A stretch of 64,000 bases of DNA from an uncultured Chloroflexia bacterium (GCA_963835655.1 CAWIGJ010000003.1:1011380-1075379); one strand, 5' to 3'; shown: positions 5,422 through 62,983, counted from the stretch's first letter. Program-made: numbers and translations. The notes: a model not told the origin generated them from the sequence alone.

Positions 5422-5431
5422 CTCCCTCCTC

Positions 5432-49624: not shown

Positions 49625-49701
49625 GGGCCGCTAGCTCAATTTGGCAGAGCAGCTGACTCTTAATCAGCCGGTTCCAGGTTCGAGTCCTGGGCGGCCTACC
49701 A
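49625..49701 (+). tRNA. tRNA-Lys (anticodon CTT)
   Basis: Cloverleaf folds as GGGCCGC/GCGGCCT acceptor, GCTC/GAGC D-stem, GCTGA/TCAGC anticodon stem with loop CTCTTAA, and a CCAGG/CCTGG T-stem with a TTCGAGT loop. CCA is encoded. Confidence 0.9.
49655..49701 (+). repeat. attL core: the 3' 47 nt of tRNA-Lys, identical to 62920-62966
   Basis: Exact 47/47 match: gactcttaatcagccggttccaggttcgagtcctgggcggcctacca. Confidence 0.85.
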
Positions 49702-49714
49702 GAAAACGAATCTA

Positions 49715-49740
49715 GAAAGGCCCCCTTCGAGGGGCCTTTC
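49715..49740. terminator. Perfect hairpin GAAAGGCCCC cttcga GGGGCCTTTC, likely a bidirectional terminator between tRNA-Lys and the first element gene
   Basis: 10-bp perfect stem. T-rich flank on the minus strand (TTTCTAGATTCGTTTTCTGG). Confidence 0.45.
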
Positions 49741-49758
49741 TGCTTACCTTCCTTAGCA

Positions 49759-49778
49759 TTTGCTAACATTTTGCTAAC
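49759..49778 (+). repeat. Two direct copies of TTTGCTAAC (plus an overlapping TTAGCA/TGCTAA inverted repeat) just inside attL; candidate integrase arm sites
   Basis: ccTTAGCAtTTGCTAACatTTTGCTAACgc. The same 9-mer pair occurs at 62768-62789. Confidence 0.5.
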
Positions 49779-50169
49779 GCTCGTGTGGGCGGTAGTGTCC
49801 CACTAGAAACGCCAAGTGCGCGGTACTCATCAGGAAGGCGGTCGCCTTCGGTCCGACCGACGTTGAACCTGTGGCCTCCCTACGGTGCATAAAGAAGAGA
49901 AGATTGGTCGTTAGGAGAGCGAGGGCGGCTCTCTCTATATCCGTTTTGTGCGAAGCGTCCGCCGCGACGACACAAGCCGCTATATAGTCAAAGGCCTTGT
50001 CCGAATGAAGTTCAGGCTTAGAGACGTTCAGTTGTTTTGCTAACTGACGGAGGGTCTCAAGCACAATCTCATTTCCAGTATTTGGGTCTGTGTCAGCATC
50101 TTCCACTTGCTTGAGCCAAGCGACAGCCTCGGCTTCCCCCAATAGATCCATTTCGCTGTTCTCATCCAT
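49774..50169 (-). CDS. Hypothetical protein (131 aa), element cargo
   Basis: ORF only. No recognisable motif. Confidence 0.4.
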   Translation of the reverse strand: MDENSEMDLLGEAEAVAWLKQVEDADTDPNTGNEIVLETLRQLAKQLNVSKPELHSDKAFDYIAACVVAADASHKTDIERAALALLTTNLLFFMHRREATGSTSVGPKATAFLMSTAHLAFLVGHYRPHER

Positions 50170-50173
50170 CTTG

Positions 50174-51316
50174 TCACCTACTGAACACTAGCGCCGCCAC
50201 CCGCTCTGCGGCGTCCTCTTGCAAGCCGGGGATAACGGCGCTGTAGACGTCGAGGGTAAAGGCGACGCTGCTATGTCCGAGCCGTTCACTGACCACTTTC
50301 GGGTGAACGCCAGCGGCCAACGCAAGGCTGGCGTGACCGTGGCGCAAATCATGCAGCCTTATCGTGGGCAGGCCAGCCGACTTCACGAGGAGCTGGAAAT
50401 GGCCCGAGAAGGACTCGGGGTTTACGGGGCCGCCGTCCGGCGCCGTGAATACCAGCGCCTCGGCGTCGGGCGCCCCTAGTCCAAGAGTCATGCGATCTTC
50501 CAGCACCCGCTTGCGGTGAGCCCTGAGAACGGCGATCGTGGTCGTGTCTAGGCTGATCTTGCGGTTGCCCCGGCCTGTCTTCGGCTCGCTCGAAAGGATT
50601 TGCCCCTTCACGCTGATAAGCGTCTGATTGACGCTGAGGTGGCCAGCCTTGAGGTCTAGGTCACACCACCTTGCCCCCAGTGCTTCGCCGCGTCTCATGC
50701 CCGTGGTGGCGAGTAGGAACAGGGGCTGGTAGTAGTAGTCACCTTCTATATGTCGGAGGAATTGGCCCAGTTGGTCAGCGTTCCATGTCCGAAGGGTATG
50801 GTTACGCTGCTGCTTTGGTGGGCTTGCAGCAGCGGCCACGTTCCTAGTCACGTCACCCCATTTGAGGGCTTCGCCCAATGCGCGGTGCAACGTCGCGTGG
50901 CAATAGCGCACCGTTCGGGGCGATAAACCGCCCTTGCCCTGGCGCCGGCCGCTTTCCAGGAGTTCAGCGTAAAGGCTATTCAACTGGCCGGGGGTGAGTT
51001 TCTGCAACGGCGTGCTACCTATTCGCGGCTTGATATAGCTTTCGACTATCAGCCGGTAGCCCTCGAGCGTTGACGCGCGGACGCTGGCCCGCGCCTGATC
51101 CAGCCATCGCGTCAGGAACATGGCCAGCGTTTCCCGTGAGGGCTCTACAAGGTTGCCCGTGGCGTAGCGCTGAAGCGTCTCCGTTAGCCCGGCCTCGCAC
51201 TCTTTCCGCGTACGAAATCCGCCCTTAGTCCGCTGCCGACGCCGGCCCTTTTCGTCGCGGCCAACGTCGAGCGTATAGCTCCAGGTCCTGCCCCTCTTGC
51301 CGACGTGTCCTTTCAT
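50174..51316 (-). CDS. Tyrosine-type phage integrase
   Basis: Catalytic box R…HDLRH…LGHSSVAFTLDVY. Adjacent to attL and tRNA. Start probably the internal Met (MKGHVGKRG) next to the upstream gene stop. Confidence 0.85.
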   Translation of the reverse strand: MKGHVGKRGRTWSYTLDVGRDEKGRRRQRTKGGFRTRKECEAGLTETLQRYATGNLVEPSRETLAMFLTRWLDQARASVRASTLEGYRLIVESYIKPRIGSTPLQKLTPGQLNSLYAELLESGRRQGKGGLSPRTVRYCHATLHRALGEALKWGDVTRNVAAAASPPKQQRNHTLRTWNADQLGQFLRHIEGDYYYQPLFLLATTGMRRGEALGARWCDLDLKAGHLSVNQTLISVKGQILSSEPKTGRGNRKISLDTTTIAVLRAHRKRVLEDRMTLGLGAPDAEALVFTAPDGGPVNPESFSGHFQLLVKSAGLPTIRLHDLRHGHASLALAAGVHPKVVSERLGHSSVAFTLDVYSAVIPGLQEDAAERVAALVFSR

Positions 51317-52221
51317 GATTGCCCTCCTCTGTGTTCTCGCGCCCATGCGCGATCCCGACAGCGCTTGTCATGGTACTCTTGCAGCCCGTGGGCGACGCCG
51401 AAGAGACGCCCGCAACCTTTGCAGAGCTGCCATCGTTTACCGGCCGCTAGGTCTTCATAGAGTTGCAGCCACATGGCAGTTTCTAAGTCGCCACAGCTCG
51501 ATCCACCTTTGATTCTGCCACCATCAATGGAGAGCCCTAGCCGAACGCTCTCCAACCGTTCCCAGAACACCGACGCCAAGCGAACCTGCTTCTCCTCTAG
51601 GTCCGGATCGTCGTCGAACTCCTCTGCGTCTCGTACCTGCTTCACGAGCCGAACGGCCTCAGAGAACTCGATGGCTTGTATAAGCAAGCGCCAGAGAATG
51701 ATCCTGACTTTGCCGTCCGCGTCCTCCAGATCGGCGAAGATGGGGCGCGGCGGTGATTGCCGAGTGTAGATAATGCCGCCCGGTAGAGGTCGCGGAAGGA
51801 CTGGCCCCCAATTGACGACGAACGCTCGCGCCTCGCGCTGGATCGCCCCGTTGAACGAGGCGTATATGGCAAGGGTTTCCGCAGAATCTTCGCCGCTCGG
51901 TGCCGACCTTTGCCCTGCGTCCTGCGCATGCTTTCCTAGCGCGGCGAAGTCGCTGTAGGGCTGCGGCGTCAGTCTGAGCGGCTCATACCCCTCGCGGCTG
52001 AAGTCCACGAGCGCGCCGTCAAACTGTAACGCGACGGGGTCGCCGCCGACGCGCCAGTGCTGCCTGTTTCCCTTCGGCCACCAAAAGACCGTGAAAGTGT
52101 CGTCGCGTTTCTGCATTTCGGCCCCTATCTCGGCGGAAATCGGCTTGGCCTCGTCTATTATTGCACGGTACCATACCAGTGTCAAGCGATTAGAAGGGGA
52201 TAGGAGCAGAAAAAATGACAC
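51313..52221 (-). CDS. Hypothetical protein with a C-terminal CGNR-like zinc-finger (CxxC…F…C-R-x-R…HR)
   Basis: C-terminus RWQLCKGCGRLFGVAHGLQEYHDKRCRDRAWAREHR resembles the zf-CGNR signature. The N-terminal ~35 aa may be an over-extension. Confidence 0.4.
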   Translation of the reverse strand: MSFFLLLSPSNRLTLVWYRAIIDEAKPISAEIGAEMQKRDDTFTVFWWPKGNRQHWRVGGDPVALQFDGALVDFSREGYEPLRLTPQPYSDFAALGKHAQDAGQRSAPSGEDSAETLAIYASFNGAIQREARAFVVNWGPVLPRPLPGGIIYTRQSPPRPIFADLEDADGKVRIILWRLLIQAIEFSEAVRLVKQVRDAEEFDDDPDLEEKQVRLASVFWERLESVRLGLSIDGGRIKGGSSCGDLETAMWLQLYEDLAAGKRWQLCKGCGRLFGVAHGLQEYHDKRCRDRAWAREHRGGQS

Positions 52222-52439
52222 AGAAGAATGCGATGGCGGTAGACGTTCGCCGGCTGCCGCCGACGGTCACCGTTCCCGAAGCGGGTAGCTTGCTGGGAAT
52301 CAGTCGCGGGTCCGCTTACGAGGCCGCCCGTACGGGGCAAATCCCGGCCCTGAGAATCGGGGCGCGCCTCGTGGTGCCTACGGCGCAGTTGCTCCGGCTT
52401 CTAGAGGGTGTGCCCACCGAGCCGAAGCCGGGCGCCTGA
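52215..52439 (+). CDS. Excisionase/AlpA-family HTH DNA-binding protein
   Basis: VTVPEAGSLLGISRGSAYEAARTGQIPALRIGARLVVPTAQLLRLLEG matches the excisionase-family HTH pattern. Divergent from the integrase. Confidence 0.65.
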   Translation: MTQKNAMAVDVRRLPPTVTVPEAGSLLGISRGSAYEAARTGQIPALRIGARLVVPTAQLLRLLEGVPTEPKPGA

Positions 52440-52549
52440 GCCGACAAGGGCCGTGAGCACGTTGACTGAACTCCGTCCTGCGCGCGCTTTGTGCCCGCGC
52501 TGCCAATTTCGGTTCGAGCTTCTTTCGGAAGTCCGGGTAGAGGATAGCG

Positions 52550-53527
52550 TTGCCTGCCCCAAGTGCCATGTCGTGGTTTGCCCCGAACGGGAGCCGCTCG
52601 ACCAAAGTTGGTGGGCTTGGGCGAATAGCAGAGGGGCAGACCGTGAATCTTGACGACATTCTCCCGCTTCTCGATTCGCCCGCCGGCGATCCTTTCGGCG
52701 GGAAGCCGGTTGCGCCGGACCGTCACACGTGGTTTTTCTGCCCCGTTCATGCGGATGGCAGCAAGCACGGGCGCCGCTCGGCAACCTTTCACCCCCGCTA
52801 TGGCCTGACCTGTTTCGCCGGCTGCGAAAGGCGCGACATCATTGCCGCGCTCCAAAAGCGCGGCGGCGTTCATCCCGCCCATACACCGAGCGACAGCAGC
52901 CCCGCGCATCGCTCGAGGTCAAAAGCGATCCCTGGCCGGATCGTCGCCCGCTACCCGTACCCCGACGAAAGGGGCCAGTTGCTGTATGAGGCCCTACGCA
53001 AGGAGACGGCTGACGGCAAGACATTCCTTTTGCGGCGGCCTAACGGCATGGGCGGCTGGATTTGGAACATTGACGGCATGCGCCGTGTCCTCTATCGGCT
53101 TCCCGAACTCCTGGCGGCTGACCCTAGCGCCTTTGTTTTCATCTGTGAGGGCGAGAAGCGCGTTGATGCGCTTGCTCGGCTCGGCCTCACGGCGACAACA
53201 AACGTAGGCGGCGCCGGGAAGTGGAAACCCGCCTGTAACGACTATCTTCGCCGCCGGCGCGTCGTGATCCTTCCCGACAACGATCCGCCAGGAGCCGAAC
53301 ACGCTGAGCAAGTGGCGCGCTCACTTATGGGCGTCGCCGCTGAAGTCCGCGTGATCGTGCTGCCCGGCCTGCCTTTCAAGGGCGACATCATTAACTGGCT
53401 TGCTGCTGGCGGCAACCGCGAAATACTCCTAGCCCTGGCAGAGCGCCCGCCGACGGAGCGGCCATCTTCCGCCGACTTCCCGAAAGCCGTCCGGGTGAGC
53501 GTCCTTAACGCCGCAGGAGTTGCCTGA
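52550..53527 (+). CDS. Phage/plasmid primase (CHC2 zinc finger plus Toprim)
   Basis: CPVHADGSKHGRRSATFHPRYGLTCFAGC (CHC2). Toprim glutamate in ICEGEKRVDAL and DxD in ILPDNDPPG. Confidence 0.75.
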   Translation: MPAPSAMSWFAPNGSRSTKVGGLGRIAEGQTVNLDDILPLLDSPAGDPFGGKPVAPDRHTWFFCPVHADGSKHGRRSATFHPRYGLTCFAGCERRDIIAALQKRGGVHPAHTPSDSSPAHRSRSKAIPGRIVARYPYPDERGQLLYEALRKETADGKTFLLRRPNGMGGWIWNIDGMRRVLYRLPELLAADPSAFVFICEGEKRVDALARLGLTATTNVGGAGKWKPACNDYLRRRRVVILPDNDPPGAEHAEQVARSLMGVAAEVRVIVLPGLPFKGDIINWLAAGGNREILLALAERPPTERPSSADFPKAVRVSVLNAAGVA

Positions 53528-54750
53528 TGCCTCAGCCTAGCACGCGGGAGGAAGTTGCCATCGTCGCATTCGGTGACGGCTCGCACACCGACCGGGAGCA
53601 AGTTCTGGAAGTGGTAAGCCGCTGGCTGAGAATCGGCGACCTCGAGGCGGTCGACGTCATCATGGCAACCGCTATCGCAATCTACCTGCCGGGCGATCCC
53701 CTTTGGCTTCACGTTGTAGCTCCACCTGGAGGCACCAAGAGCGAGTTACTGCGGTCGCTACAGGGGCCAAGGGTCGTCAGCATTTCCACCATGACGCCGC
53801 AGACGCTCATCTCGGGCCTCAAGGGGCACGGTGAGGACATCGACCTGCTGCCTAAGCTCGATGGCAAACTGCTTATCATCAAGGACTTCACGTCCATTCT
53901 TTCAAAGAAGTCAGAGGACCAGGCGGCAATCTTCGCCGACTTGCGCGAAGCATATGACGGCTATCTTGAAAAGTCCTTCGGCTCCGGCGTCGGGATAAAG
54001 GGCTACAATGCCAGTTTCGGACTCATTGCGGGCGTCACGCCCGCGATAGACATGTTCCGGACTGTCCATTCCTTGCTCGGCGAGCGCTTCCTTCGGGTCA
54101 ATGTTGTTGGCGATGAACAGGGCGCCGTCACGCGCTCCAGTGAGCTTGAGGGCCAAGAGAAGACAATGCGCCAAGAGCTCGGCGCCGCTGTCGGCGGCTA
54201 TCTCACGCATGCCGGCGAATGGGTTGACCCCGACGTGCTGGTAGAAGAGCGTTTCCTTCAGCAGCTCCGGGCACTGGCACAGCTCACGGCTGCCCTGCGT
54301 TCCCCCGTCGCTCGCGACCGTCAGCACCACGTCCTCTATTCGCCTCAGCGTGAGATAGGTACGCGGCTCGTTAAGCAGCTTCAGAAACTTGGCAAGGCGC
54401 TCGCCAACTGGCGGGAACGCCTGATAGTCAGCGCTGAAGATTACGCTACCGTTCGTCGCGTCGCGCTTGACTGCATACCGAGCGGACGAATTGCCGCCCT
54501 GCGGCCGCTCCTAGAGGCGGATACGTGGCTATCGACAAAACAGGTAGGGCAAGCCGCTAACCAGCATACCGACACCGCAAACGAGCATCTTCATGACATG
54601 TGGATGCTCCATCTCCTACAACGCGAAGGTGACGCCGCCTATTCATGGGCAGTAGCGGATGAAACCCGCCAACTGCTAGGAAGGGCGGCTATCGACCTAC
54701 GGACGCAAAACACCCTGAGTAGGCTAGATGAGGCAATGGAATGCCCTTAA
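53527..54750 (+). CDS. Primase-associated P-loop NTPase / replicative helicase-like protein
   Basis: Walker-A-like VVAPPGGTKSE and Walker-B-like KLLIIKDF. Start overlaps the primase stop (ATGA), suggesting translational coupling. Confidence 0.45.
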   Translation: MPQPSTREEVAIVAFGDGSHTDREQVLEVVSRWLRIGDLEAVDVIMATAIAIYLPGDPLWLHVVAPPGGTKSELLRSLQGPRVVSISTMTPQTLISGLKGHGEDIDLLPKLDGKLLIIKDFTSILSKKSEDQAAIFADLREAYDGYLEKSFGSGVGIKGYNASFGLIAGVTPAIDMFRTVHSLLGERFLRVNVVGDEQGAVTRSSELEGQEKTMRQELGAAVGGYLTHAGEWVDPDVLVEERFLQQLRALAQLTAALRSPVARDRQHHVLYSPQREIGTRLVKQLQKLGKALANWRERLIVSAEDYATVRRVALDCIPSGRIAALRPLLEADTWLSTKQVGQAANQHTDTANEHLHDMWMLHLLQREGDAAYSWAVADETRQLLGRAAIDLRTQNTLSRLDEAMECP

Positions 54751-54811
54751 TTGTTAAGACTCAAGGACGCAAAACACCCTGTGCAAGCACGAGGACAAAT
54801 ATAATTTGTCC
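54701..54811 (+). promoter_or_regulatory. Origin-like region: two 17-bp direct repeats GGACGCAAAACACCCTG (54701-54717 and 54765-54781) followed by the AT-rich palindrome GGACAAATATAATTTGTCC (54793-54811)
   Basis: Read directly. Located at the 3' end of, and just after, the helicase-like gene. Confidence 0.5.
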
Positions 54812-55091
54812 TTTTAGAACGTCGGCGGCTACTGGGGGTACTTTGCGCCCCTGGCCTACTGCCTGCCAACAAGCGCGTGTGCTACCCGCTCCGGCCACAA
54901 AATCACGCGGCGACAGCCGCCCAAGCGGTAGGCTCAGTGGATGCGGCAGAACGAAGGCCCTGCCATGACTGCCACCAAAGAGGACTCGGCCCGTGAGCAA
55001 AGCGTTAGCAGGCAAGCGGGATCGAATCTGGAAAAGGCCCAGCAGCGGATTGGTAGTCAGCGGGATTACACACTAACGGAGTCTGACTAGG

Positions 55092-55631
55092 ATGGCCGTC
55101 AAAGCCGAAATAGAGCCCGCCACAGGCGCGCTAGAGCCGCGATCTATCTCGCCGGCGCAACGTCAGCAGCGCCAGCTCGCAGCCGTGAAGACGGGTCTGT
55201 ATGTAAAAGCCCCTGCTGGCCTCAGGCTCAGGTCGCGAAGAGTGCGCCGCTTGGTAAGCAAAATGCGCGCGGTCATGCCGTGGCTTGACGATAGCGACTT
55301 GCCAGCTTGTAGGGCGTGGGCAGAGTTCGAGATTCTAGGCGCTACTGCCTTCGCCGATCTCATTGAGCGCGGCATGACAAACGACAATGGCGATCCGCGC
55401 CGGTTGCTGGGCGAATTCAGGCAACTTCGGCAGGCGCAACTCGGCTATGAGCGCGGTCTAGGAATGACGCCAGCCGCCCGCATGTCCTTGCGGGTAGGCG
55501 ACAGCCGGGCGCGTTCGTTCGATAGGGGCGGCGTTGCCGCATCTGCTGAGGACGTGGCAGCGCTTGAAACGCGCGTCCTGGCGCGTCTAGGGCCGCAAGG
55601 AACGGCGGCAGAGGTGAACAGTGGAGACTAA
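55092..55631 (+). CDS. Terminase small subunit (P27-family-like)
   Basis: 179 aa. Overlaps the terL start by 11 nt. Sequence character fits the P27 small terminase family. Confidence 0.55.
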   Translation: MAVKAEIEPATGALEPRSISPAQRQQRQLAAVKTGLYVKAPAGLRLRSRRVRRLVSKMRAVMPWLDDSDLPACRAWAEFEILGATAFADLIERGMTNDNGDPRRLLGEFRQLRQAQLGYERGLGMTPAARMSLRVGDSRARSFDRGGVAASAEDVAALETRVLARLGPQGTAAEVNSGD

Positions 55632-57000
55632 CGACGCCCTGGCGCAATCGCCCTTGTTGTGGGCGCTGGAGCGGCTTCACCGCCTCAACGGACGGCCTTT
55701 CACGCTCTATGACTACCAGCTTCACGTCCTGGCAAACCGCTCGCCGCGTGTGCTGGTCCTGAAGTCGCGACAAGTCGGGCTATCGACAGCGGCGGCGATC
55801 AGGGCGGCTCACGAATTGCTGTTCAACGAACGGGCGATGGTGCTGGTAGTGAGCCGCGATCAGGACGCCGCCGGCCACTTCCTTGCGACCGTCCTTGACA
55901 TTCTCGACTCACTTGCTGAGCCGCCTGACTTCACGCGGCGCGGCGTCTTTGAGGCGCAACTAAAGAACGGATCACGCATCCTGTCGCAAGCGGCGACAGG
56001 CAAGGCAGGGCGCGGCGTTAGGGCGACACTCGTGGTCTGTGATGAATTCGCCTTTATGGATTATGACGCGGCGATCTTCCGCGCCGTCAGCCCGACGATA
56101 GCGCGCGGCGGGCGGCTAATCGTGATCAGCACGCCCAACGGTCAAAACAATCTCTTCTTCAGACTGTGGCACGGCAACGAAGGCGGCGATTGGTCAAGGC
56201 ATCGCGTCCACTGGAGCGACTGCCCGGCGTTTGATCCGGCATGGTTTGAGCGGGAACGTCCGAACTATACCGCCCGCGACTGGGCGCAAGAGTTCGATTT
56301 GGACTTCGTTGCGAGTGGCGGCGCTGCCTTCCGTCCTGAGGACGTTGACGCCATGGCCGATGGATGGCAGGGCTATCAGCCGCGCAAGGATGATGAGCGG
56401 TTTGCGATCTATGTCACGGGCGTTGACGTCGGCCGCAAGCATGACGCGACCGTGCTAATCACCCTGAGGACTGACAGGCGACCGTTCCAGATCGTCGCGT
56501 TCGAGCGGCTAGTGGGCTGTCCCTACGCTCAGCAGCAGGCCTTGATCGAGGCGCGGGCCGAAGCCTACGGCGGCAAGGTGATAGTCGAGAGCAACGGGAT
56601 CGGCGACCCGGTTCTCGAGGCGCTGCATTGCTACGCCGATCCCTTCGTAACGACTCAACAGAGCAAGGCGCACGGCCTGACGCGGCTCATTCAACTGGTA
56701 GAGCAGCGCCAGATCAAGGGCGACATTCCCGAGTTGCTGTCAGAACTTCGCTCCTACGAATGGGAGGATTCGCGGCTCAAAACAGACTGTGTAATGGCCC
56801 TGATGCTCGCTTGCACGGGCATCGTCGAGTATTACGTATCGTTCCAAGAGCTTCAGGACATGATGGACGAAGGCTCGCGCGGGCGGGGAACTATCGTCAC
56901 AAACTCTGACGGCACGCGCTGGTTGAATTCGAGTTGCGTTGAGGACGACGCCCGAGCGGATGAAGCGGGCGCGTTCCATAGCATCCCGACAGTCTTTTGA
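55621..57000 (+). CDS. Terminase large subunit (ATPase plus RNaseH-like nuclease)
   Basis: Walker A region VLKSRQVGLST, Walker B LVVCDEFAF, and the nuclease Asp cluster YVTGVDVGRKHDATVL. Confidence 0.75.
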   Translation: METNDALAQSPLLWALERLHRLNGRPFTLYDYQLHVLANRSPRVLVLKSRQVGLSTAAAIRAAHELLFNERAMVLVVSRDQDAAGHFLATVLDILDSLAEPPDFTRRGVFEAQLKNGSRILSQAATGKAGRGVRATLVVCDEFAFMDYDAAIFRAVSPTIARGGRLIVISTPNGQNNLFFRLWHGNEGGDWSRHRVHWSDCPAFDPAWFERERPNYTARDWAQEFDLDFVASGGAAFRPEDVDAMADGWQGYQPRKDDERFAIYVTGVDVGRKHDATVLITLRTDRRPFQIVAFERLVGCPYAQQQALIEARAEAYGGKVIVESNGIGDPVLEALHCYADPFVTTQQSKAHGLTRLIQLVEQRQIKGDIPELLSELRSYEWEDSRLKTDCVMALMLACTGIVEYYVSFQELQDMMDEGSRGRGTIVTNSDGTRWLNSSCVEDDARADEAGAFHSIPTVF

Positions 57001-57028
57001 CACTGCCGGGGTAGGAAAGGAAACGGAA

Positions 57029-57391
57029 ATGGCGACAGGAACCTCAAACGAGAAAGTCAGGGAGCACCTGAAGACGCTGAGTGAACAGATGCGCCTTCGC
57101 TACAACGTGCTGGAGGACCGGCGCGCGGCTGAAGAGGCGGGCAACTCAGTGATTCCGCCAGGGCTGCCAGGAGAAACATTCGGCTTCAAGACGACAACGC
57201 GAATCGACGCGCCGGCCATCATGAAAGTTGACCCGAAGGCTAACGCTGCCATGAAGCAGCGGCTCCAGAACGTGTTGGGCGTTGCGAAGCTGCTTGGTGT
57301 TCCCGAAGACAAGGCGCGAGAACAGTTCGAGCGGGAACAGGCAGGCCAGCGGCCGCTCGATAACACCGTGCCGGGATTCAAGGGAGTGTAA
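57029..57391 (+). CDS. Hypothetical phage protein (120 aa)
   Basis: RBS GGAAAGGAAACGG. ATG at 57029 follows terL. Confidence 0.45.
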   Translation: MATGTSNEKVREHLKTLSEQMRLRYNVLEDRRAAEEAGNSVIPPGLPGETFGFKTTTRIDAPAIMKVDPKANAAMKQRLQNVLGVAKLLGVPEDKAREQFEREQAGQRPLDNTVPGFKGV

Positions 57392-57394
57392 ACC

Positions 57395-57715
57395 ATGCAA
57401 ACGGGAGACGTACACCGCGTCGATTTTGCCAACGTTCGGCGCTACGCCGACAGCGAACTCGACCGCTGCTGGAGTTGCCGCAACTTGGCGCGCTGTTCTG
57501 GCGATTGTCACTCGCACGCCGAGCCGCCCGTCGCTGTAAAGGTTAACGGCTCAGCGGATGCGCGGGCGAGACAGCAACTCGATGAAGTCCTGACGGTCGG
57601 CAAGGGCGCCGGTCTTAGTGAAGCACAAGTCCTCGAGCAAAGGCTGAGGCAGCTTCAGGGCAAGCCGCCGGTTCCCGATGGAACTTTCGGCTTCAACGGG
57701 GGTCACGCCCAATGA
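57395..57715 (+). CDS. Hypothetical Cys-rich protein (CWSC…C…C…H)
   Basis: ORF in the structural/packaging module. Possible zinc-binding. Confidence 0.4.
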   Translation: MQTGDVHRVDFANVRRYADSELDRCWSCRNLARCSGDCHSHAEPPVAVKVNGSADARARQQLDEVLTVGKGAGLSEAQVLEQRLRQLQGKPPVPDGTFGFNGGHAQ

Positions 57716-57930
57716 CCCCGCTCATCGAGGAATTGGCGGCGCGCGTCGAAAACGGCCAAATCCGCCTATCGCGACTGCCGCCGGGCGAAACGCGCGATCA
57801 AGTGGCGGCGCGACTGGAGAAGGATCGCGGCGACTTGCAGCGCTGGCTCGACGTAGAAGAGCTTGAAAGAAACAGCCGGGCGAACAGCGCTGAGCCCCTG
57901 CCGTGGGACTTGCGACGGAAGGAACTGTGA
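57712..57930 (+). CDS. Hypothetical protein (72 aa)
   Basis: Overlaps the preceding gene by 4 nt. Confidence 0.35.
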   Translation: MTPLIEELAARVENGQIRLSRLPPGETRDQVAARLEKDRGDLQRWLDVEELERNSRANSAEPLPWDLRRKEL

Positions 57931-58140
57931 ATCGCGTTAGGTGCGTGAAGTGAACGAAGTGAATTTCGGCTCGGACAGGTGTGGCTTCACCTCCTTGTTG
58001 TCTGCCTGTCCGGTCGGCGTGTCGGGCCGGGGTGTGTGACGCGCGACTTCCATCGCGTTGCCATAACGAGCTTGACCTCCTTGAGCTCCCCGGTCCGGAG
58101 CGCTTCAAGTCAGGGTGACGCAATTTGAAAGGATAGCCCA

Positions 58141-59748
58141 ATGGCAGACGATTCAACCCTGAGTATCCTAATTCAGGCTGAGGACCAAGCCTCGAGCGCC
58201 CTTCAAAGCGTCGGCGGCTCCCTTGACGACCTTCAATCAAAGGCGCAAGGCGTCACTGACGCCGCAGGCGACACGGCGGGTGCCATGTCTGACGTTGGGG
58301 ACACGGCGGCAGATGCCGGTTCAAGCCTTGAGGATGCGGGCGGGGCTGCGGCTGACACCGGGACAAACCTTGAGGATGCGGGTAGTTCTGCCGACAGTGC
58401 GGGGATGAGCATCGGCGACCTGACCTCACAGGTTGGTGATCTGGCGGGCGGTCTAAGCGGCCTCACGCCCGAAATGGGAACGTTAACCGCTGGATTAGGC
58501 GGGCTATCTGGGGCAGTGGCCGGACCAGCGGGTATAGCAGCGGCTATTGGCGCTGGAGCGGCGGCCTTCATCGGGCTAGGCGAAGCGGGCGGTCAGTGGG
58601 CAACTGAGGTGATGACCGTTAAAGACATCACCAATATGAGCACGACTGACGTAACGAAGTGGGGCCTTGCGCTGGAAGACGTGGGCGGCGACATGAATCA
58701 GCTCGCTACGATCTCCTACATGCTGGAGCGCCGATTGCAAACGCAAGTAGATGCCGAGAACGCAGGGCAGACGGGTAGTTTGGCGTTGGCGAAAGCGATG
58801 GAGGACACCGGAACGGCCTACAAGGATGCCGAAGGGAACATGCTCGACATGGGTACTATCCTGCCCAATCTGCTAACGAATCTGACAGCCATGACGGATA
58901 AAACGCTGGCCGCTAATGATGCCACGGTAATTCTCGGACGCGGCGGGCGTGAAATGCTAGTGGTACTTCAAGAATGGCCTGATCTGGCGGCCGCCGTCAA
59001 CCGGCAGACTGCCGAGTTGGATACCACGACTGAAGAAGGGGCGAAACACGCCATCGAGTACAACATCGCCATGACGGACATGAAAGACGAGCTGATCATG
59101 CTCGATCAGGACGTTTTACCCGCGTTTACCACATTCCTAGAGGCCCTACCCGTCGGCTTCCATATGGCTGGCGACGCCATGCACCTTCTGTTTAGAGAGA
59201 TCGTGGACGGAGCGCCGTTTTTGCGCTCGATGGTCGATACAGTCTCGGCCGGAGCTGACATACTACACGGCGACTTCAAGGGCGCCGTAGACGACGGAAA
59301 GAACGCCCTGCGAGATATGATTCCCGGCTATAACATGGCGCAGGACGCTATTGCCGGCGTCAACGATGAAACCAAGGATTTGTCTAGTTCGCTCGACGCC
59401 CAATCTGAAAGCCTGAAATCCTCGACTCAGCAATGGGCCGACTACAACTCAGAGATTGAAGCGGCTCTCAGCATGGGCATGACGCTGGAAGAGGCCGTGA
59501 CCAGCGTAAGTCATCCCGGTGTAGACATCACCGGCCAAGAGGTGAACGTTCCTACCTATGACTACGGCGGCTTTGTGCCCGGGGCGCCGGGTGCGCCGCA
59601 ACTTGCAGTTGTGCATGGCGGCGAGACGGTGACGCCAGCGGGCCAACAGCAGTTCGGCACCTTCCAGAACTTCGGTAATATCAACGTCTACCCCCAGAGC
59701 GGCGGCATGGCCGACATGATGGCAGAAATAGCGAAGCAGGTGAGCTAA
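58141..59748 (+). CDS. Tape-measure-like / tail structural protein (Gly/Ala/Asp-rich repeats)
   Basis: N-terminal degenerate repeats DxGxxxxDxG followed by Gly-rich hydrophobic segments, then a helical region. Position is after the terminase genes. Confidence 0.35.
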   Translation: MADDSTLSILIQAEDQASSALQSVGGSLDDLQSKAQGVTDAAGDTAGAMSDVGDTAADAGSSLEDAGGAAADTGTNLEDAGSSADSAGMSIGDLTSQVGDLAGGLSGLTPEMGTLTAGLGGLSGAVAGPAGIAAAIGAGAAAFIGLGEAGGQWATEVMTVKDITNMSTTDVTKWGLALEDVGGDMNQLATISYMLERRLQTQVDAENAGQTGSLALAKAMEDTGTAYKDAEGNMLDMGTILPNLLTNLTAMTDKTLAANDATVILGRGGREMLVVLQEWPDLAAAVNRQTAELDTTTEEGAKHAIEYNIAMTDMKDELIMLDQDVLPAFTTFLEALPVGFHMAGDAMHLLFREIVDGAPFLRSMVDTVSAGADILHGDFKGAVDDGKNALRDMIPGYNMAQDAIAGVNDETKDLSSSLDAQSESLKSSTQQWADYNSEIEAALSMGMTLEEAVTSVSHPGVDITGQEVNVPTYDYGGFVPGAPGAPQLAVVHGGETVTPAGQQQFGTFQNFGNINVYPQSGGMADMMAEIAKQVS

Positions 59749-59757
59749 CACGGGGCA

Positions 59758-59985
59758 ATGTCTATGGCCTTAGTGCGCTGTGGCCGCCCGTACTGTGGCG
59801 GCGCAATCTTGCCCGGCGAGTCCGCCTGTCTCCTTTGCGGCCGCTGCCCCCGCAAACTTGAGCCTATCCGCCTTCCCGTTCGGCGCCGCGAAAAGACGTT
59901 CTCAGTGCTGGCGGCGATAATGGTAGAGGTCCCAGGTGCCTTCCGTTCGCTGAGGGCGGCTGTACCCGAGGGGGTAGACTTCTAG
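59758..59985 (+). CDS. Small zinc-ribbon protein (CxxC…CxxC)
   Basis: CGRPYCGG…CLLCGRC. Confidence 0.35.
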   Translation: MSMALVRCGRPYCGGAILPGESACLLCGRCPRKLEPIRLPVRRREKTFSVLAAIMVEVPGAFRSLRAAVPEGVDF

Positions 59986-60098
59986 TAGCACGTCGCGCCC
60001 GGGCGCTCTAGGTACTGACCGACCGCCTTCTTTCCGACCCCCAAAGCTAGGAACCGCTCGTTTTGCCGCCAGGATCGAAATCTGGGCGTTTCCCGCGC

Positions 60099-60128
60099 TT
60101 GACAGGCGCTAGACACCGGCGTACTATC
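60099..60128 (+). promoter_or_regulatory. Near-consensus sigma70 promoter (TTGACA, 18 nt, TACTAT) upstream of the second recombinase
   Basis: cgcTTGACAggcgctagacaccggcgTACTATcc. Confidence 0.4.
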
Positions 60129-60252
60129 CGCCGTGAAAGACGACGGCGCCCGCTTGGGCGGACGCCGCCTGAGCCAAAGCCTGCTGTTACCAGGCCCGGC
60201 CCGCGCAAAGGATACCATGTCGGACCCCTGATCGCAGCAGCGAAGGGGGTTT

Positions 60253-61143
60253 TTGATGATCACGGTAAAGGATGCAGTGAGCCGCTACATTCAAAGCCTC
60301 TGCGCCAGCGGCTACTCCGAGTTCACTACGATCAGCGCGACCTCTATTCTAGGGCAGTTCGCAACCTACGCCGATGGTGCAGCCTTAGCCGATGTCGGTG
60401 ATCGGGCCATCGCTTGGCTGGCTCTTCGCCGCCGACAGGTTCGGCGTAACACGCTGTGTGCCAACTCCTCACACGTTAAGCAATTCCTCAAGTTCTGCAA
60501 GGACAACGGCTGGATCGAGTCCAATCCCGTTGCCGACATGAAGCGACCATGTGCAGAACAGGTAGTCACACAACCGCTGAGTGATAGGGAAATCCTCGCG
60601 CTATGCGAGGCGGCAACGGGTTGGCAGCGGACGGCTATCGTTTTACTGCTAGGAACCGGGATGCGGATCGGCGAGCTCGCCGCCCTGCGCTGGCAGGACA
60701 TTTACGATCAATACGTGGTAGTGCATGGGAAGGGTTCAAAGCAGCGCACGCTCGCTCCGGGCAGGCGAGCTATGGAGATGCTGCGCGAGTTGCCACAGGC
60801 CGGCGATAAGGTATTCCCCTGTACCTATGGCGGCATAAAGACGGTTCTGCGGCGCCTCTCCGTTCGCAGCGGTATCTACTTCCATCCGCATCAGTTCCGG
60901 CATACGTTTTCCCATCGCTTCCTCGAGGCTGGCGGCTCATTTGAAGAGCTGTCAGAGATTCTGGGCCATGCCAACCTGAACACAACGGCTGTCTATGTCC
61001 GGGCATTCCGGCGGGATCGAGCGTTAGCGGCGCAACGCCGCTGGAATCCGGCTGATGCGCTCTTTGGAATTCCCGACGATGGTGACGACGGCGCCAGCAA
61101 CGTTGTCGCGTTTCATCCGAGAGTCGCAGTCGGGGCGCGATAG
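60253..61143 (+). CDS. Second tyrosine recombinase (XerC/D-like)
   Basis: R…HQFRHTFSHRF…LGHANLNTTAVYV catalytic box. Confidence 0.8.
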   Translation: MMITVKDAVSRYIQSLCASGYSEFTTISATSILGQFATYADGAALADVGDRAIAWLALRRRQVRRNTLCANSSHVKQFLKFCKDNGWIESNPVADMKRPCAEQVVTQPLSDREILALCEAATGWQRTAIVLLLGTGMRIGELAALRWQDIYDQYVVVHGKGSKQRTLAPGRRAMEMLRELPQAGDKVFPCTYGGIKTVLRRLSVRSGIYFHPHQFRHTFSHRFLEAGGSFEELSEILGHANLNTTAVYVRAFRRDRALAAQRRWNPADALFGIPDDGDDGASNVVAFHPRVAVGAR

Positions 61144-61480
61144 AGGGCGTTGACCCGCTCGACGTACCGTTGTCACTGAGTAGATAATCGCGACGTTAGG
61201 CCGGGGGTTTGTGTTGTGCGGCAACCCGCGACAGTCGTAAACGGGTCTATGAGAATGGCACCGGGTCCCACCTTAAGTCCCGTGGCTGGGGCAACGCAAG
61301 GATGCGATCACATTTCCAGGAGGCAGTCTGTCAAGAGATTGGGAGCGATTCTATGCGCACGGCCTACCCCCGGCCGACGCATTCCAATGATCGAAAGGAG
61401 ACAGTTGTGGAATCTGAAGATGTTTACGAGACTTTAGCAGCCCTCAAGAAAACAGCAGGCTGATAGGGGCGAGCAGGGGT

Positions 61481-61837
61481 CTACTGCAGCTTCCCGTCCT
61501 TGTCGCTTACCGTGTAGGTGTCTGACTCGACGATGTTCTGGCCCGCTTGGTCTGGGGCGAAATCGCAGGTGACTACCCACATGTCGGCGTCGGGCCTATA
61601 AGAGGCGCTGACGCATCTTACAAAGTTAGCTCCCGCCGGAGCGGGCATATTGCTCACCTGCTGTTGAGCCAGCCGCTCAATGTCTTGTGCAGTGAACCTG
61701 GCCTTGGGCGCGGCGGTGGGCGCGGGCGTGGGAATTGTTTGCGTCGATTGCCACGGACCGGTCACATACAGGATCGCACCGGCCGCGATACCAGCGCCGA
61801 CCAGCAGTGCGACTACGGGGATTATCCACTGCTTCAT
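61481..61837 (-). CDS. Membrane-anchored or secreted hypothetical protein (118 aa), element cargo
   Basis: N-terminal signal anchor, Pro/Thr linker, and a Cys-containing C-terminal domain. Confidence 0.4.
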   Translation of the reverse strand: MKQWIIPVVALLVGAGIAAGAILYVTGPWQSTQTIPTPAPTAAPKARFTAQDIERLAQQQVSNMPAPAGANFVRCVSASYRPDADMWVVTCDFAPDQAGQNIVESDTYTVSDKDGKLQ

Positions 61838-62008
61838 GGTACGTCTCCTAACAGGAGTCTGACGAGGATAGGCGCATTCTACACCCGTGAGTCAACGTAT
61901 CGCGTGCGCGTCGTTCTGCAACCCGATTTGCAACAAGAATCTTGACGCTCGTGGTATCCTTTCACTATCTCAGGACCTCCGCCAATCCCATCAACAGGGA
62001 CACAACAT

Positions 62009-62662
62009 ATGCCCTGGCCATTCCGACGAAGGCTACCAGATAGCGATTTCGCAAACGTCATTAACTTGATCCGTCATCTCCAGACCCAGGGAGCACTCCA
62101 GGATTTTACCGGCGAGCTTTCAATCACGGCCATGGCCATCGCGGACGGCGCTGGTCTACAGGAAGATGGAGTCTTCGCCCGTGGGAGGGCATACGTAACT
62201 GATCCTCACCGCGCCGCCACTCATCTTCTTCCCGCATTCGAAAAGACGGTTACGATGGCCGAGTCCATGGCCAGCGAACACAACTCATATCCGGCCCCAC
62301 AAACACCCAAGAAAGCGCTTGAGGCCTACAATTCCTGGACGGATTTCCTAACCTTATTTGTCACCAGAGCAAGACTAGAACTTGCCTGTTATACGGAATG
62401 GGTCGAGAATCCCTCTCTTGATGTCAGTCAGCGTTCCGCCGCGCTCAACCAGGCCACAGACGGCTCATTAGCCCTCGCCGTGACCCGTCTCAAGGACCTC
62501 GTCCGCTATGCGGGAATCAGCACAGACGCTTGGTGGTCTCTCAACTGTGCCGCGTTCAACGACGCCCGAAGCCGGGTCGATCTACCTCCCTTGACCGAGA
62601 CCGACTTCCGCGCCAGGTACCTCTCCATGGTCGCTGGAAGCCGACCTCGATTCTTCGAATGA
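62009..62662 (+). CDS. Hypothetical protein (217 aa), element cargo near attR
   Basis: ORF only. Confidence 0.4.
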   Translation: MPWPFRRRLPDSDFANVINLIRHLQTQGALQDFTGELSITAMAIADGAGLQEDGVFARGRAYVTDPHRAATHLLPAFEKTVTMAESMASEHNSYPAPQTPKKALEAYNSWTDFLTLFVTRARLELACYTEWVENPSLDVSQRSAALNQATDGSLALAVTRLKDLVRYAGISTDAWWSLNCAAFNDARSRVDLPPLTETDFRARYLSMVAGSRPRFFE

Positions 62663-62767
62663 CATTGCCAAGACAACGAGACATACCATGACCGCCTTGA
62701 CCGGCGACAGTACGCATGCGCCGGGCATGACCTTGCAGACAGCGAATAACTGGGGCGTTTTGCTAAC

Positions 62768-62966: not shown

Positions 62967-62983
62967 GTGAAGGATCGCTGGCC

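Follow-up and report, generated by a model that had tools for sequence, protein, structure and literature searches.

A tRNA-integrated island with its own terminase and a tape-measure gene, a candidate helper-dependent satellite in an uncultured Chloroflexia bacterium

We analysed a 64,000-nucleotide stretch of DNA from an uncultured Chloroflexia bacterium (hereafter, the window) and found in it a mobile island of 13,265 bp (49655-62967). The best reading, to which we assign a probability of about 0.55, is a satellite that depends on a helper but supplies its own terminase. By sequence comparison, the island most likely represents a lineage, so far undescribed, of small elements (about 10-13 kb) that integrate into tRNA genes of Dehalococcoidia-type bacteria.

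Results

Boundaries and gene content of the island

The island is flanked by a perfect 48-bp direct repeat. The left copy (attL, 49655-49702, + strand) lies in the integration target, a tRNA-Lys (CTT) gene at 49625-49701 (+; ARAGORN; Rfam tRNA, 64.6 bits), to which it owes its 47 nt of tRNA 3′ end. The right copy (attR, 62920-62967, +) is an exact repeat corresponding to the displaced tRNA-Lys 3′ fragment, and is followed by a tRNA-Leu gene at 62984-63068. The window contained two exact copies of the repeat, and chance matches were found in 0 of 100 shuffles. The limits set in the first-pass annotation were therefore too narrow, and its gene list lacked a 75-aa Zn-ribbon ORF, a second recombinase (60253-61143) and three further ORFs.

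The gene set comprises a tyrosine integrase, an excisionase-like HTH protein, a TOPRIM primase, a putative P-loop ATPase, TerS, an intact TerL, three small helical ORFs, a 535-aa tape-measure protein, the Zn-ribbon ORF and the second, XerC-like recombinase. All island ORFs were intact and had GC1/GC2/GC3 patterns of coding type; 8 of the 17 had no assigned function. A further candidate, the ORF at 54741-54968, is probably not a gene (GC2 0.72, GC3 0.49).

Pfam, PHROGs and NCBIfam profile searches revealed neither genes nor gene remnants for capsid, portal or protease in the island. A tblastn search of region 49001-63500 with relatives' capsid, protease and portal proteins as queries gave nothing stronger than E=0.04. 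The listed genes being intact and these searches negative, the earlier description of replication and packaging modules without capsid, portal or protease was upheld. Tail tube, baseplate and lysis genes were also absent from the island, no island gene matched any of 5,027 defence models, and no helper phage was present in the remaining 50 kb of the window.

Integration, regulation and accessory genes

A 131-aa accessory ORF with lower GC3 (0.58) adjoins attL (49774-50169, −) and is followed by a terminator-like hairpin at 49741-49714. The tyrosine integrase gene (50174-51346, −; Pfam PF00589, 5e-17; PF14659; PF14657) encodes arm-binding, SAM-like and catalytic domains; it shares 51% identity with its counterpart in L169, a complete relative, and 49% with that in L091. 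Between int and xis lies a candidate regulator, a 302-aa ORF (51313-52221, −) with a C-terminal Cys-rich motif. It had no family match in the libraries searched, and L173 has a homologue (61% identity) at the equivalent position, between int and HTH_17. Its true start is probably M36, because the promoter scan placed a promoter-like site at 52185-52157. The excisionase/AlpA-like HTH_17 protein (52215-52439, +; PF12728, 2e-9) has homologues in L091 and L169.

The second tyrosine recombinase (60253-61143, +; 296 aa; PF00589, 3e-27) is of the XerC-like type, the sole recombinase type on the recovered sequence of L089, L170, L092 and L003; in L089 and L003 the gene adjoins tRNA genes. Upstream of it is a conserved non-coding leader (59985-60253, +), possibly an attP-like region. 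Its counterpart in L122 is 77% identical across 275 nt and separates TerL from the XerC-like gene there. Stems were invariant between the two leaders and differences were confined to loops; the promoter scan gave a promoter-like site at 60099-60127 within the leader. As judged from these comparisons, the second recombinase and its leader mark the island as a mosaic of the lineage's two integrase types. The remaining accessory ORFs encode 118 aa with an N-terminal hydrophobic anchor (61481-61837, −) and 217 aa with no family match (62009-62662, +).

Replication module

The TOPRIM-type DNA primase (52550-53527, +) matched phrog_239 (9e-22), phrog_6088 (3e-21) and NCBIfam PRK07078 (1e-29), and shared 35% identity with the N-terminal part of the L169 primase-helicase (672 aa). 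The adjacent 407-aa ORF (53527-54750, +) had no family match in Pfam, PHROGs, NCBIfam, PADLOC or PDB. We designate it a putative P-loop replication ATPase because its sequence contains P-loop-like, Walker A/B-like motifs (GGTKS and LLIIKDF) and because the gene that occupies the replication slot in L170 (420 aa) is 34% identical to it. Of the primase/helicase pair named in the first-pass annotation, the primase was thus confirmed, and the "helicase" is better described as this putative ATPase.

Non-coding repeats at 54701-54811 (+) comprise a 17-nt direct repeat present in two exact copies 64 bp apart, followed by an AT-rich perfect palindrome. Iterons were found at the same position in relatives L169, L168, L089 and L173. 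SaPI origins lie directly 3′ of replication genes. From their position, the repeats are a candidate replication origin or packaging site.

Terminase genes

The TerS gene (55092-55631, +) matched Terminase_6 (PF23931) at E=0.0076, which is sub-threshold alone; in its homologue family of 11 members, Terminase_4 matched four (best 6e-8) and Terminase_6 matched four. The protein was 62-68% identical to TerS of L089 and L091, and terS was always directly upstream of TerL. The intact TerL (55621-57000, +) matched phrog_2 (1e-39), Terminase_6N (1e-12) and, in PDB, the T4 gp17 ATPase (1e-11) and nuclease structures of thermophilic-phage TerL. Its P-loop is of the deviant lambda type (K48-SRQVG-LS) and its Walker B motif is D141-E142; an STP coupling motif and the acidic residues of an RNase-H-type nuclease are also present. 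Residues K48, D141/E142, S170-T171-P172, D269, E323 and D383/D389 were invariant in 27 TerL clade members, and the P-loop was identical in phage-borne relatives. The earlier assignment of both terminase subunits therefore held, firmly for TerL and through the homologue family for TerS.

Genes downstream of TerL

The first ORF after TerL (57029-57391, +) encodes a 120-aa helical protein with a long N-terminal helix and a C-terminal helix-turn-helix. Its AF2 model (pLDDT 69) matched no known fold at E<0.1; a function in scaffolding or assembly is speculative. Its C-terminal 60 aa aligned without gaps (score 86) with the next ORF (57395-57715, +; 106 aa), so the two are paralogues; besides this shared domain, the 106-aa protein has an N-terminal Cys/His cluster. 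A 72-aa ORF (57712-57930, +) overlaps the 106-aa ORF by ATGA in the −1 frame. These two ORFs fill the position of tail-assembly chaperones ahead of the tape-measure gene, and two small ORFs likewise precede the homologous tape-measure gene in a real phage, L171. No slippery heptamer was seen at the overlap, and a G/GT-type frameshift is therefore unsupported.

The 535-aa protein (58141-59748, +) had been called Gly-rich and tape-measure-like; it is a genuine member of the tape-measure family. Exhaustive HMMER search gave 356 relatives at E≤1e-3, of which 30 were at ≤1e-10; PF10145 was matched by 18 of the 32 top relatives (best 1e-13), and the profile matched the gp41 tape measure of PDB 9b45 (3.9e-5). 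The protein has an N-terminal coiled/low-complexity region, Gly/Ala-rich hydrophobic segments and a conserved C-terminal motif (GG.VPG..G.PQLAVVHGGE.V.PAG), which is common to P0122, a PF10145 protein whose gene is followed by one with a faint SPP1_Dit match. Its AF2 model was all-helical with low confidence (pLDDT 42). The suggested check for capsid or portal folds was thus negative for this protein and for the helical 120-aa model; the three small ORFs (72-120 aa) are too small to be capsid or portal. The Zn-ribbon ORF (59758-59985, +; 75 aa) is a homologue of the last gene of L003 (BLASTP, 38% identity; phmmer, 8.6e-8).

A TerL clade confined to small elements

In a neighbour-joining tree without support values, 13 TerLs from small elements (50-59% identity) formed one clade, found only in small integrase/primase/TerS/TerL elements. 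TerLs at least 50% identical to that of the island were restricted to contigs arranged as int, HTH_17, primase-helicase, terS, TerL and short ORFs (L091, L168, L169, L170, L173, L003, L004, L089 and L092/93). L169 alone is demonstrably complete: it is bounded by perfect 62-nt tRNA-Leu repeats 10,046 bp apart, has the same gene order as the island (integrase 51% and TerL 53% identical), and gave no capsid, portal or protease match. Most other relatives are on cut contigs, and head genes further downstream are therefore possible in them.

In eight distinct clade elements, the ORF after TerL encoded 130-285 aa and large downstream ORFs were never a portal; neither a portal nor a head-tail adaptor was found in any clade member. 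At TerL identities of 49% or less, which represent sister TerLs in ordinary phages, an ORF of at least 400 aa came next in 36 of 40 loci, and in L007 it was verified as a Mu-type portal. The small-element clade was absent from 2.9 million IMG/VR viral contigs (best match 47% identical), whereas phage-borne sister clades were common there. The genes that follow TerL encode an HK97 capsid protein in L089 (Pfam, 3.6e-39), a prohead protease in L003 (phrog_80, 4e-13) and a virion-protein fragment in L169 (2e-10). Post-TerL genes showed no homology when compared across elements.

Discussion

Comparison with known satellites

The first-pass annotation held that PICIs keep terS and not terL, and that both without head genes are unusual; this agrees with published definitions, in which terL, portal and adaptors separate cfPICI from PICI (PMC10085698). 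Like PICIs of the SaPI type with their own TerS, the island is of the same size class, integrates site-specifically with att repeats, has the order int, regulator, xis/AlpA-like gene, primase/replicase and terS, carries iterons directly 3′ of the replication genes and a variable accessory region after the packaging gene, and lacks head and lysis genes. It differs in its full TerL and tape measure, neither of which PICI models allow (PMC10085698), and in host phylum; sequence kinship is limited to generic domains. As in cfPICIs (about 13-14 kb; bioRxiv 10.1101/2022.09.08.507074, Alqurainy et al.), terS and terL adjoin an int/regulator/primase module, and in some relatives (L089, L003) TerL precedes a gene for a capsid protein or a protease. 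However, the defining capsid, portal, protease and head-tail adaptors/connectors are absent from the island and from complete L169, and cfPICIs have no tail genes, whereas the island has a tape measure. On its predicted genes, the island fails both definitions.

Extracellular prophage-inducing particles (EPIPs) of Mycolicibacterium (PMC12822802, a 2025 preprint), compared by description only, are satellites of about 11 kb that also have terS and a tape measure and lack tail-tube and lysis genes. They differ in having a serine integrase, a head-tail adaptor/stopper, a scaffold and a capsid-type gene, with no terL or primase reported, and were isolated as free particles. The Streptomyces satellites MulchRoom and MiniFlayer (PMC10690885) are likewise small, have both terminase subunits and depend on helpers for tails; their content is opposite in that they encode portal, major capsid, scaffold and adaptor without a primase. 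PICMI and VEIME marine satellites (PMC10803314; PMC9618062) share the reduced gene content without capsid-remodelling or head genes, and likely have to be packaged as multimers into helper-size heads; they have at most terS, with no terL or tape measure reported. Phages with sister TerLs, such as L007 with its Mu-like head module, have the same TerL family (Terminase_6N, lambda-type deviant P-loop), but there a Mu-type portal, Mu F and a protease come after TerL, and then tail genes. Such phages are the probable source of the island TerL gene and the probable type of helper; identity to TerL of Meiothermus phage MMP17 and Thermus phage Riverbug was 32-33%.

Alternative explanations

The strongest rival, itself unlikely, is that deletion removed from a temperate siphovirus all genes from portal to tail tube and all those beyond the tape measure, leaving a prophage without function. 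Both terS-terL and the two small ORFs with the tape measure are in canonical siphovirus order, the absent genes are exactly those between and after these blocks, in L171 two small ORFs likewise precede the homologous tape measure and a gene with a faint SPP1_Dit match follows it, and the second recombinase and unrelated accessory ORFs suggest past rearrangement. However, region 49001-63500 contains no tblastn-detectable head-gene pseudogenes or remnants, the att repeats carry no mismatch, TerL retains every catalytic residue, the primase and ATPase adjoining int/xis form a satellite-like replication module, and lysis genes are absent. Decay would also have had to produce the same architecture independently at least eight times over about 45% sequence divergence. 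We favour a new kind of satellite over a decaying prophage because this TerL clade is monophyletic and occurs only in a conserved lineage of portal-less elements of similarly small size, including complete 10-kb L169. The first-pass annotation had offered a satellite redirecting a helper's capsids or a prophage remnant; our results support it in part, since it left both options open within too narrow limits, and capsid redirection is a prediction from gene content.

Next, and also unlikely, is a degenerate cfPICI-like member whose ancestral protease, capsid and perhaps portal were swapped for a tape-measure cassette, leaving it dependent on helper heads or immobile. The capsid protein of L089 and the protease of L003 directly after TerL, and the published view of terL as a hallmark of capsid-forming islands (PMC10085698), are consistent with this. 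Against it, no clade member has a portal or head-tail adaptor, complete L169 has none of these head genes, and capsid or protease genes occur in a minority (2 of 8 elements). The post-TerL modules are non-homologous, and repeated independent capture therefore looks likelier than loss from a common full set.

An improbable alternative is that the terminase acts mainly as an anti-phage or interference device, by competing for the portals or cutting the concatemers of an invading phage, and does not serve the transfer of the island itself, or that the island is an otherwise non-viral mobile element. Satellite TerS and other packaging-interference genes are known as defence factors (PMC9618062, PMC11417361), and accessory ORFs without assigned function flank the core. 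Against it, none of the defence models was matched. Self-packaging is also the better fit to terS and terL being strictly paired alongside int/xis/primase, and to the iterons adjoining terS, although interference does not preclude self-packaging.

A very compact complete phage with cryptic capsid and portal genes among the eight unannotated ORFs is highly improbable, because TerL is followed only by the tape measure and by ORFs of 120, 106, 72 and 75 aa, below the size of HK97 capsid (about 230 aa or more) and portal (about 350 aa or more) proteins, the 302- and 407-aa ORFs lie in lysogeny and replication slots that homologues also occupy elsewhere, both predicted models (535 and 120 aa) are all-helical, and tail tube, baseplate and lysis genes are absent.

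Proposed life cycle of a satellite with its own terminase

If the island is a helper-dependent satellite, the tyrosine integrase and HTH_17 excisionase, whose genes and sites are present, would excise it at the 48-bp att repeat. Replication by the primase and putative P-loop ATPase would follow, with the iteron/AT-rich region at 54701-54811 as its probable starting point. Its own TerS would recognise element DNA, and its own TerL would dock on and fill procapsids of a helper, a co-resident or infecting phage; we infer the use of helper procapsids because the island has no capsid, portal or protease gene. The variable post-TerL module may consist of single virion-assembly genes taken from phages that adapt the helper's assembly line: a short tape measure and small helical ORFs in the island, and a capsid protein, prohead protease or virion-protein fragment in relatives. 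Speculatively, the tape measure sets tail length or serves DNA delivery. EPIP satellites provide a precedent: the length of their tails is altered, and the tape measure that they encode has been proposed to modify the tails they hijack (PMC12822802). In published satellite models, a tail gene is a "forbidden" component (PMC10085698).

Because two relatives carry a capsid or protease gene, the island may instead be a derivative, now without function, of a capsid-forming ancestor. We know of no characterised satellite that has TerL without a portal or capsid. If the satellite reading is true, the island's own TerL must fit a foreign portal.

Island boundaries and setting

A perfect 48-bp direct repeat was found in two copies, at 49655-49702 and 62920-62967 (0 expected by chance). 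The left copy is the 3′ part of tRNA-Lys(CTT) (49625-49701), and the right copy sits just 5′ of a tRNA-Leu. Because these repeats bound the island, its size is 13,265 bp. The first-pass annotation had placed the element at 52550-59748; this interval does fall inside a mobile element, but the true island is larger, with its repeats at 49655 and 62920. A search of the island for an internal third att copy, the mark of two tandem elements, gave only chance matches of 7-10 nt, and a tandem arrangement was rejected. The left neighbours of the island are pheS/pheT and relA, and its G+C content is ~0.60, vs. 0.62 in the surroundings. At ≥90% identity, one housekeeping protein of the window falls into a cluster with proteins labelled "Dehalococcoidia bacterium"; the host is therefore probably an uncultured member of Dehalococcoidia.

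Rfam detected two tRNAs over the island and nothing else. A PADLOC defence scan of the island returned one meaningless coiled-coil match and nothing else, and defence cargo was rejected. Coding-type GC1/GC2/GC3 patterns were present in all tabulated island ORFs, 8 of the island's ORFs being without annotation. The ORF call at 54741-54968 is probably spurious, its base composition being of the non-coding type. Elsewhere in the window, a stretch of low G+C content (4100-5800; 0.55 vs. 0.62-0.64) lies between housekeeping genes, has no relation to the island, and carries three small minus-strand ORFs (123, 119, and 112 aa) that resemble multi-pass membrane proteins.

Integration, regulation and replication genes

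The left end of the island carries a 131-aa ORF of no assigned function (ORF call; 49774-50169, minus strand) and a tyrosine integrase gene with Arm, SAM, and catalytic domains (50174-51346, minus strand). This integrase, recognised by Pfam, and the flanking perfect 48-bp repeats give the island the combination of integrase and att repeats expected of PICIs. A divergent 302-aa ORF (51313-52221, minus strand) occupies the repressor slot; a 61%-identical homologue is found in the same regulator slot of L173, a contig bearing a related element. Family-library searches revealed no recognisable DNA-binding family in the 302-aa product, and a homologue search yielded a single real relative. The best sigma-70-like promoter match of the island (52157-52185, minus strand; TTGACA-17-AATAAT with extended TG) falls within the 5′ end of this ORF as annotated. 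The true start is probably the internal ATG at M36, which agrees with the 279-aa length of homologue P0274. An AlpA/Xis-like HTH_17 gene, presumably for an excisionase and a candidate for the AlpA/Stl/MerR-type regulator that PICIs carry beside the integrase, was identified by Pfam at 52215-52439 (plus strand). The primase/replicase module expected of PICIs is represented by a TOPRIM primase (52550-53527, plus strand; PHROGs and NCBIfam) and an adjacent 407-aa ORF in which P-loop-like motifs were read (53527-54750, plus strand). A homologue of the 407-aa protein occupies the replication slot of L170, another related element; the family libraries and PDB sequences gave no match for this protein.

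A 340-bp non-coding gap (54751-55091) separates this putative replication ATPase gene from terS. At this gap, within 54701-54811, the 17-nt sequence GGACGCAAAACACCCTG occurs as an exact direct repeat, its two copies lying 64 bp apart where chance predicts none; a perfect AT-rich palindrome (GGACAAATATAATTTGTCC) comes next. Iterons of their own were found at the same position, next to terS, in the related elements L169, L168, L089, and L173. The repeats are a candidate origin or packaging site.

The terminase

TerS (55092-55631, plus strand) was weak by itself but clear at the family level; a terS profile had no meaningful match in PDB. TerL (55621-57000, plus strand) matched Pfam, PHROG, and PDB entries and has the features of a large terminase of the T4-like/Terminase_6 family: an N-terminal ATPase with P-loop, Walker B, and coupling motif, and an RNase-H-like nuclease domain at the C-terminus that bears acidic residues. 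In an alignment with T4 gp17, another residue stands in place of the classical Walker-A lysine (SRQVGLST vs. SRQLGKTT). An invariant lysine is located two residues upstream of the replaced motif (K-S-R-Q-V-G-L-S), a spacing shared with the deviant P-loop of lambda gpA (KSARVGYS). The deviant P-loop is common to phage-borne relatives adjoining portals, and is therefore evidently a subfamily trait, not decay. Residues K48, D141-E142 (Walker B), STP170-172 (coupling), D269, E323, and D383/D389 were invariant in 27 clade members. The C-terminal tails were hypervariable across the clade. About one-third of the clade TerLs (P0013, P0015-P0017, P0020, P0021, P0024, P0028) are 598-637 aa long and share a conserved C-terminal extension of ~200 aa (columns about 430-700 of clade alignment A1), which at its start is similar to the first part of a second nuclease-type domain; the others, including that of the window, have short, highly variable tails.

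A scan of a genome collection with TerL (species representatives, the window's own genome not among them) gave one distant match. In IMG/VR, the single TerL query gave only matches of 25-28% identity, and the clade alignment query gave a best match of 47% identity; the clade is absent there. Sister TerL clades are abundant in IMG/VR. One reading of this absence is that virus-calling tools miss elements without capsid hallmark genes.

Search for head genes

Searches of the island against Pfam, PHROGs, and NCBIfam gave no match to capsid, portal, or protease, and tblastn with the relatives' capsid, protease, and portal-type proteins against 49001-63500 revealed no remnant. The first-pass annotation had likewise seen none of these genes. 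No portal-sized ORF is present in the island besides the tape-measure gene.

Three plus-strand ORFs (120, 106, and 72 aa; 57029-57930; ORF calls) follow terL; all are too small for capsid or portal proteins, and none matched a family in Pfam or PHROGs, including head-tail adaptors and connectors. The one that was modelled (120 aa; single-sequence model, pLDDT 69) was predicted to form a long helix and a helix-turn-helix, and fold searches with this model returned nothing at E<0.1. The 120- and 106-aa ORFs (57029-57715) are paralogues as judged from their final 60 residues, which finish with GF.G in each; a Cys/His cluster (C-x2-C-x6-C-x3-C-x-H) is located at the N-terminus of the 106-aa protein. 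A −1 frame relation with an ATGA overlap links the 106-aa ORF to the 72-aa ORF. No slippery heptamer was found between them, and the ORFs showed no similarity to the small ORFs preceding homologous tape measures; a G/GT-type frameshift is not supported.

The next ORF encodes a 535-aa protein (58141-59748, plus strand). An exhaustive HMMER scan yielded 356 relatives, mostly of 500-1,150 aa, and PF10145 was matched by 18 of the 32 best of them (best 1e-13). The description "Gly-rich tape-measure-like" in the first-pass annotation thus held as regards the family. A profile built from the relatives matched a solved tape-measure chain (PDB 9b45, 3.9e-5); the single 535-aa sequence gave no match to PDB sequences. 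The C-terminal motif VP.Y..GG.V.G..G.PQLAVVHGGE.V.PAG is common to P0122 and is present also in P0123; P0122 is a PF10145 protein from an ordinary tail module, where its gene is preceded by two small ORFs and followed by one that faintly matches SPP1_Dit. Since the protein itself scores under the Pfam threshold (18.8 vs. 41), its membership rests on transitive homology, by which it is evidently a tape-measure protein. Its single-sequence model was poor (pLDDT 42) and entirely helical; secondary structure alone was used.

The recognisable morphogenesis genes in 13.3 kb are therefore terS, terL, and the tape-measure gene only, and the remaining coding capacity is too small for the full set of a functional tailed prophage (portal, capsid, tail tube, distal tail, and lysis genes). 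A cryptic capsid or portal, which the first-pass annotation had left conceivable, was not detected. Since the 535-aa protein belongs to the tape measures, the small ORFs are too short, and 49001-63500 holds no head gene or remnant, an ordinary compact prophage is ruled out within the reach of the tools.

A lineage of small elements

TerLs with 50-59% identity to that of the window (74% in one case) came from contigs whose genes are arranged as integrase / HTH_17 / primase-helicase / terS / TerL / few short ORFs. This group comprises L091, L168, L169, L170, L173 (which ends just before TerL), L003, L004, L089, and L092/93; most are on cut contigs, and L169 is complete. L169 is bounded by a perfect 62-nt repeat in tRNA-Leu(CAA), which recurs 10,046 bp away. 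Its genes are an integrase with 51% identity to that of the window, a 250-aa ORF, HTH_17, a 66-aa ORF, a 672-aa primase-helicase, terS, TerL (53% identical to the window's), and ORFs of 190, 64, 208, 122, and 189 aa plus an opposite-strand 82-aa ORF. None of the ORFs between its repeats matched a capsid, portal, or protease model.

TerLs of the phage group (≤49% identity) are located in ordinary phage head modules. In L007, an ordinary phage with a sister TerL, a Mu-type portal, Mu F, and protease lie immediately 3′ of TerL. The ORF after TerL is 130-285 aa in 8 distinct small elements, whereas an ORF of ≥400 aa follows TerL in 36 of 40 phage-group loci; phage-group portals were verified for L007 and inferred from size and position for the others. 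Among the 8 small elements, only three have a large ORF downstream: that of the window (tape measure), L089 (capsid protein), and L004 (serine recombinase).

In a neighbour-joining tree (no support values), the 13 small-element TerLs formed a single clade. At least eight independent decays to the same architecture over such divergence are not credible on these sequences, so the small elements evidently form one lineage. A decayed prophage, one of the two readings in the first-pass annotation, is unlikely for this reason; moreover, the replaced Walker-A lysine belongs to the subfamily and the catalytic residues are invariant.

Genes after TerL show no homology between elements. Several nevertheless encode a single virion protein: an HK97 capsid protein in L089 (Pfam, 3.6e-39), a prohead protease in L003 (phrog_80, 4e-13), a virion-structural fragment in L169 (2e-10), and the tape measure in the window. 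In L089 (5057-7055) and L003 (10458-11141), prohead protease and/or HK97 major capsid genes lie directly after TerL with no portal visible between or near them, itself an unusual combination. In the related locus L122, TerL is followed almost directly by a conserved non-coding stretch and a XerC-like gene, the same pair that follows the tape-measure block in the window. By this comparison, the three small ORFs and the tape-measure gene occupy a variable insertion site.

Two recombinases and mosaic structure

Downstream of the tape-measure gene are a 75-aa Zn-ribbon ORF found by homology search (59758-59985, plus strand), the conserved non-coding stretch of 270 nt (59985-60253), a second tyrosine recombinase gene, XerC-like by Pfam (60253-61143, plus strand), and two ORF calls of no assigned function (61481-61837, minus strand; 62009-62662, plus strand). 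An Arm-type integrase of ~380 aa, reading away from the tRNA, is present in the window, L169, L091, and L173. The XerC-like type (~316 aa) is present in L089, L170, L092, and L003, and adjoins tRNA genes in L089 and L003. Both types are present in the window island, its order Zn-ribbon ORF / conserved leader / XerC matches the would-be circular junction of an L003-type element, its primase resembles that of L169, and its ATPase resembles that of L170. The island is thus, judging from these resemblances, a recombinant of two integrase subtypes. The XerC-like enzyme may be a second integrase or a multimer resolvase. Since L004 has a large serine recombinase (11154-12101; phrog_95, 1e-79) in place of the tyrosine integrase, the terS-TerL core has been joined to at least three integration modules.

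The XerC-type element L089, from another genome, lies beside the same tRNA-Lys(CTT)/tRNA-Leu pair as the window's island (L089 1-126; window 62920-63068), but there the tRNA-Lys is intact and the element flanks it from the opposite side. The lineage thus seems to favour this tRNA pair as an insertion hotspot.

The conserved stretch (59985-60253) is 77% identical to L122 2312-2580 over 275 nt, whereas the XerC-like recombinases of the two are only ~37% identical. Its predicted hairpin stems are invariant relative to L122, differences being in the loops, and it includes a promoter-like TTGACA-17-TACTAT. Rfam gave nothing credible for it. The stretch could be transcribed as a conserved leader RNA, serve as an operator, or represent an attP region.

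Comparison with known satellites and proposed mechanism

PICIs are defined by int, regulator, pri-rep, and terS (or another packaging-redirection gene), with other structural genes absent and tail genes forbidden; cfPICIs have this set plus terL, capsid, protease, portal, and head-tail adaptors, and no tail genes (SatelliteFinder definitions, PMC10085698). The published definition agrees with the view in the first-pass annotation that PICIs retain terS and lack terL. The left half of the island has the integrase and the primase/replicase module that both definitions call for, and in the HTH_17 gene a candidate regulator. However, the island departs from PICI through terL and the tape measure; it shares terL plus terS with cfPICI, but has no capsid, portal, or protease and carries a tail gene at 58141-59748, where cfPICIs lack tail and holin genes. 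Its gene content is unlike that of P4-like and PLE-like satellites. MulchRoom/MiniFlayer have full head genes and no primase, the opposite of the island (PMC10690885), and PICMI/VEIME elements have terS at most. EPIPs are 11-kb mycobacterial satellites with a serine integrase, terS, tape measure, head-tail adaptor/stopper, and scaffold/capsid-type gene, associated with longer tails of variable length; tape measures in satellites are otherwise unreported except in one PLE preprint (2025 preprint, PMC12822802). Compared by feature description, the island shares only terS and the tape measure with EPIPs; it has tyrosine recombinases in place of the serine integrase, and the searches revealed neither an adaptor nor a capsid gene in it. 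Because it fits neither the PICI nor the cfPICI definition and differs from the other families, the island is classed here as a satellite type outside the named families.

We consider that the island is a phage satellite, an element mobilised in the virions of a helper phage, with a probability of about 0.55. We propose more tentatively, at somewhat less than even odds, that it represents an unrecognised satellite family of Dehalococcoidia in which the conserved means of hijacking is a complete terminase holoenzyme, more than TerS by itself; each member would dock this motor on a helper portal, make no heads, and carry a different stolen virion gene. A helper signal would trigger excision and replication of the element; TerS would recognise element DNA and TerL would fill helper-made procapsids, the hypervariable TerL tails reflecting the fit to different portals. 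Packaging would occur as multimers or, more speculatively, in heads of reduced size should the helical paralogues serve as scaffolds. The tape measure would enter helper tails, and the stolen virion genes (tape measure, capsid protein, protease) would tune helper assembly.

The island might instead be a degenerate capsid-forming relative, a reading which we regard as doubtful. That it is an element acting by interference only is improbable. A complete phage in cryptic form is very improbable, since there is no head-gene match or remnant and the small ORFs are too short.

Published satellites are split between those that re-aim the helper's packaging motor and those that bring motor and capsid together. 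If the satellite reading is true, a lineage with a motor and no shell would close the gap that separates PICI from cfPICI, as a third strategy beside redirecting the helper's terminase (PICI, P4) and building an own capsid (cfPICI), and would demonstrate that one element can exploit the compatibility of its TerL with the portal of another. Elements without capsid hallmarks may escape counts in virus and satellite surveys, consistent with the absence of the clade from IMG/VR. The variable module after TerL would be a natural catalogue of single virion genes useful for hijacking. The elements would be the first satellite family in Chloroflexota, and would bring satellites into a phylum for which metagenomes are nearly the sole source of knowledge.
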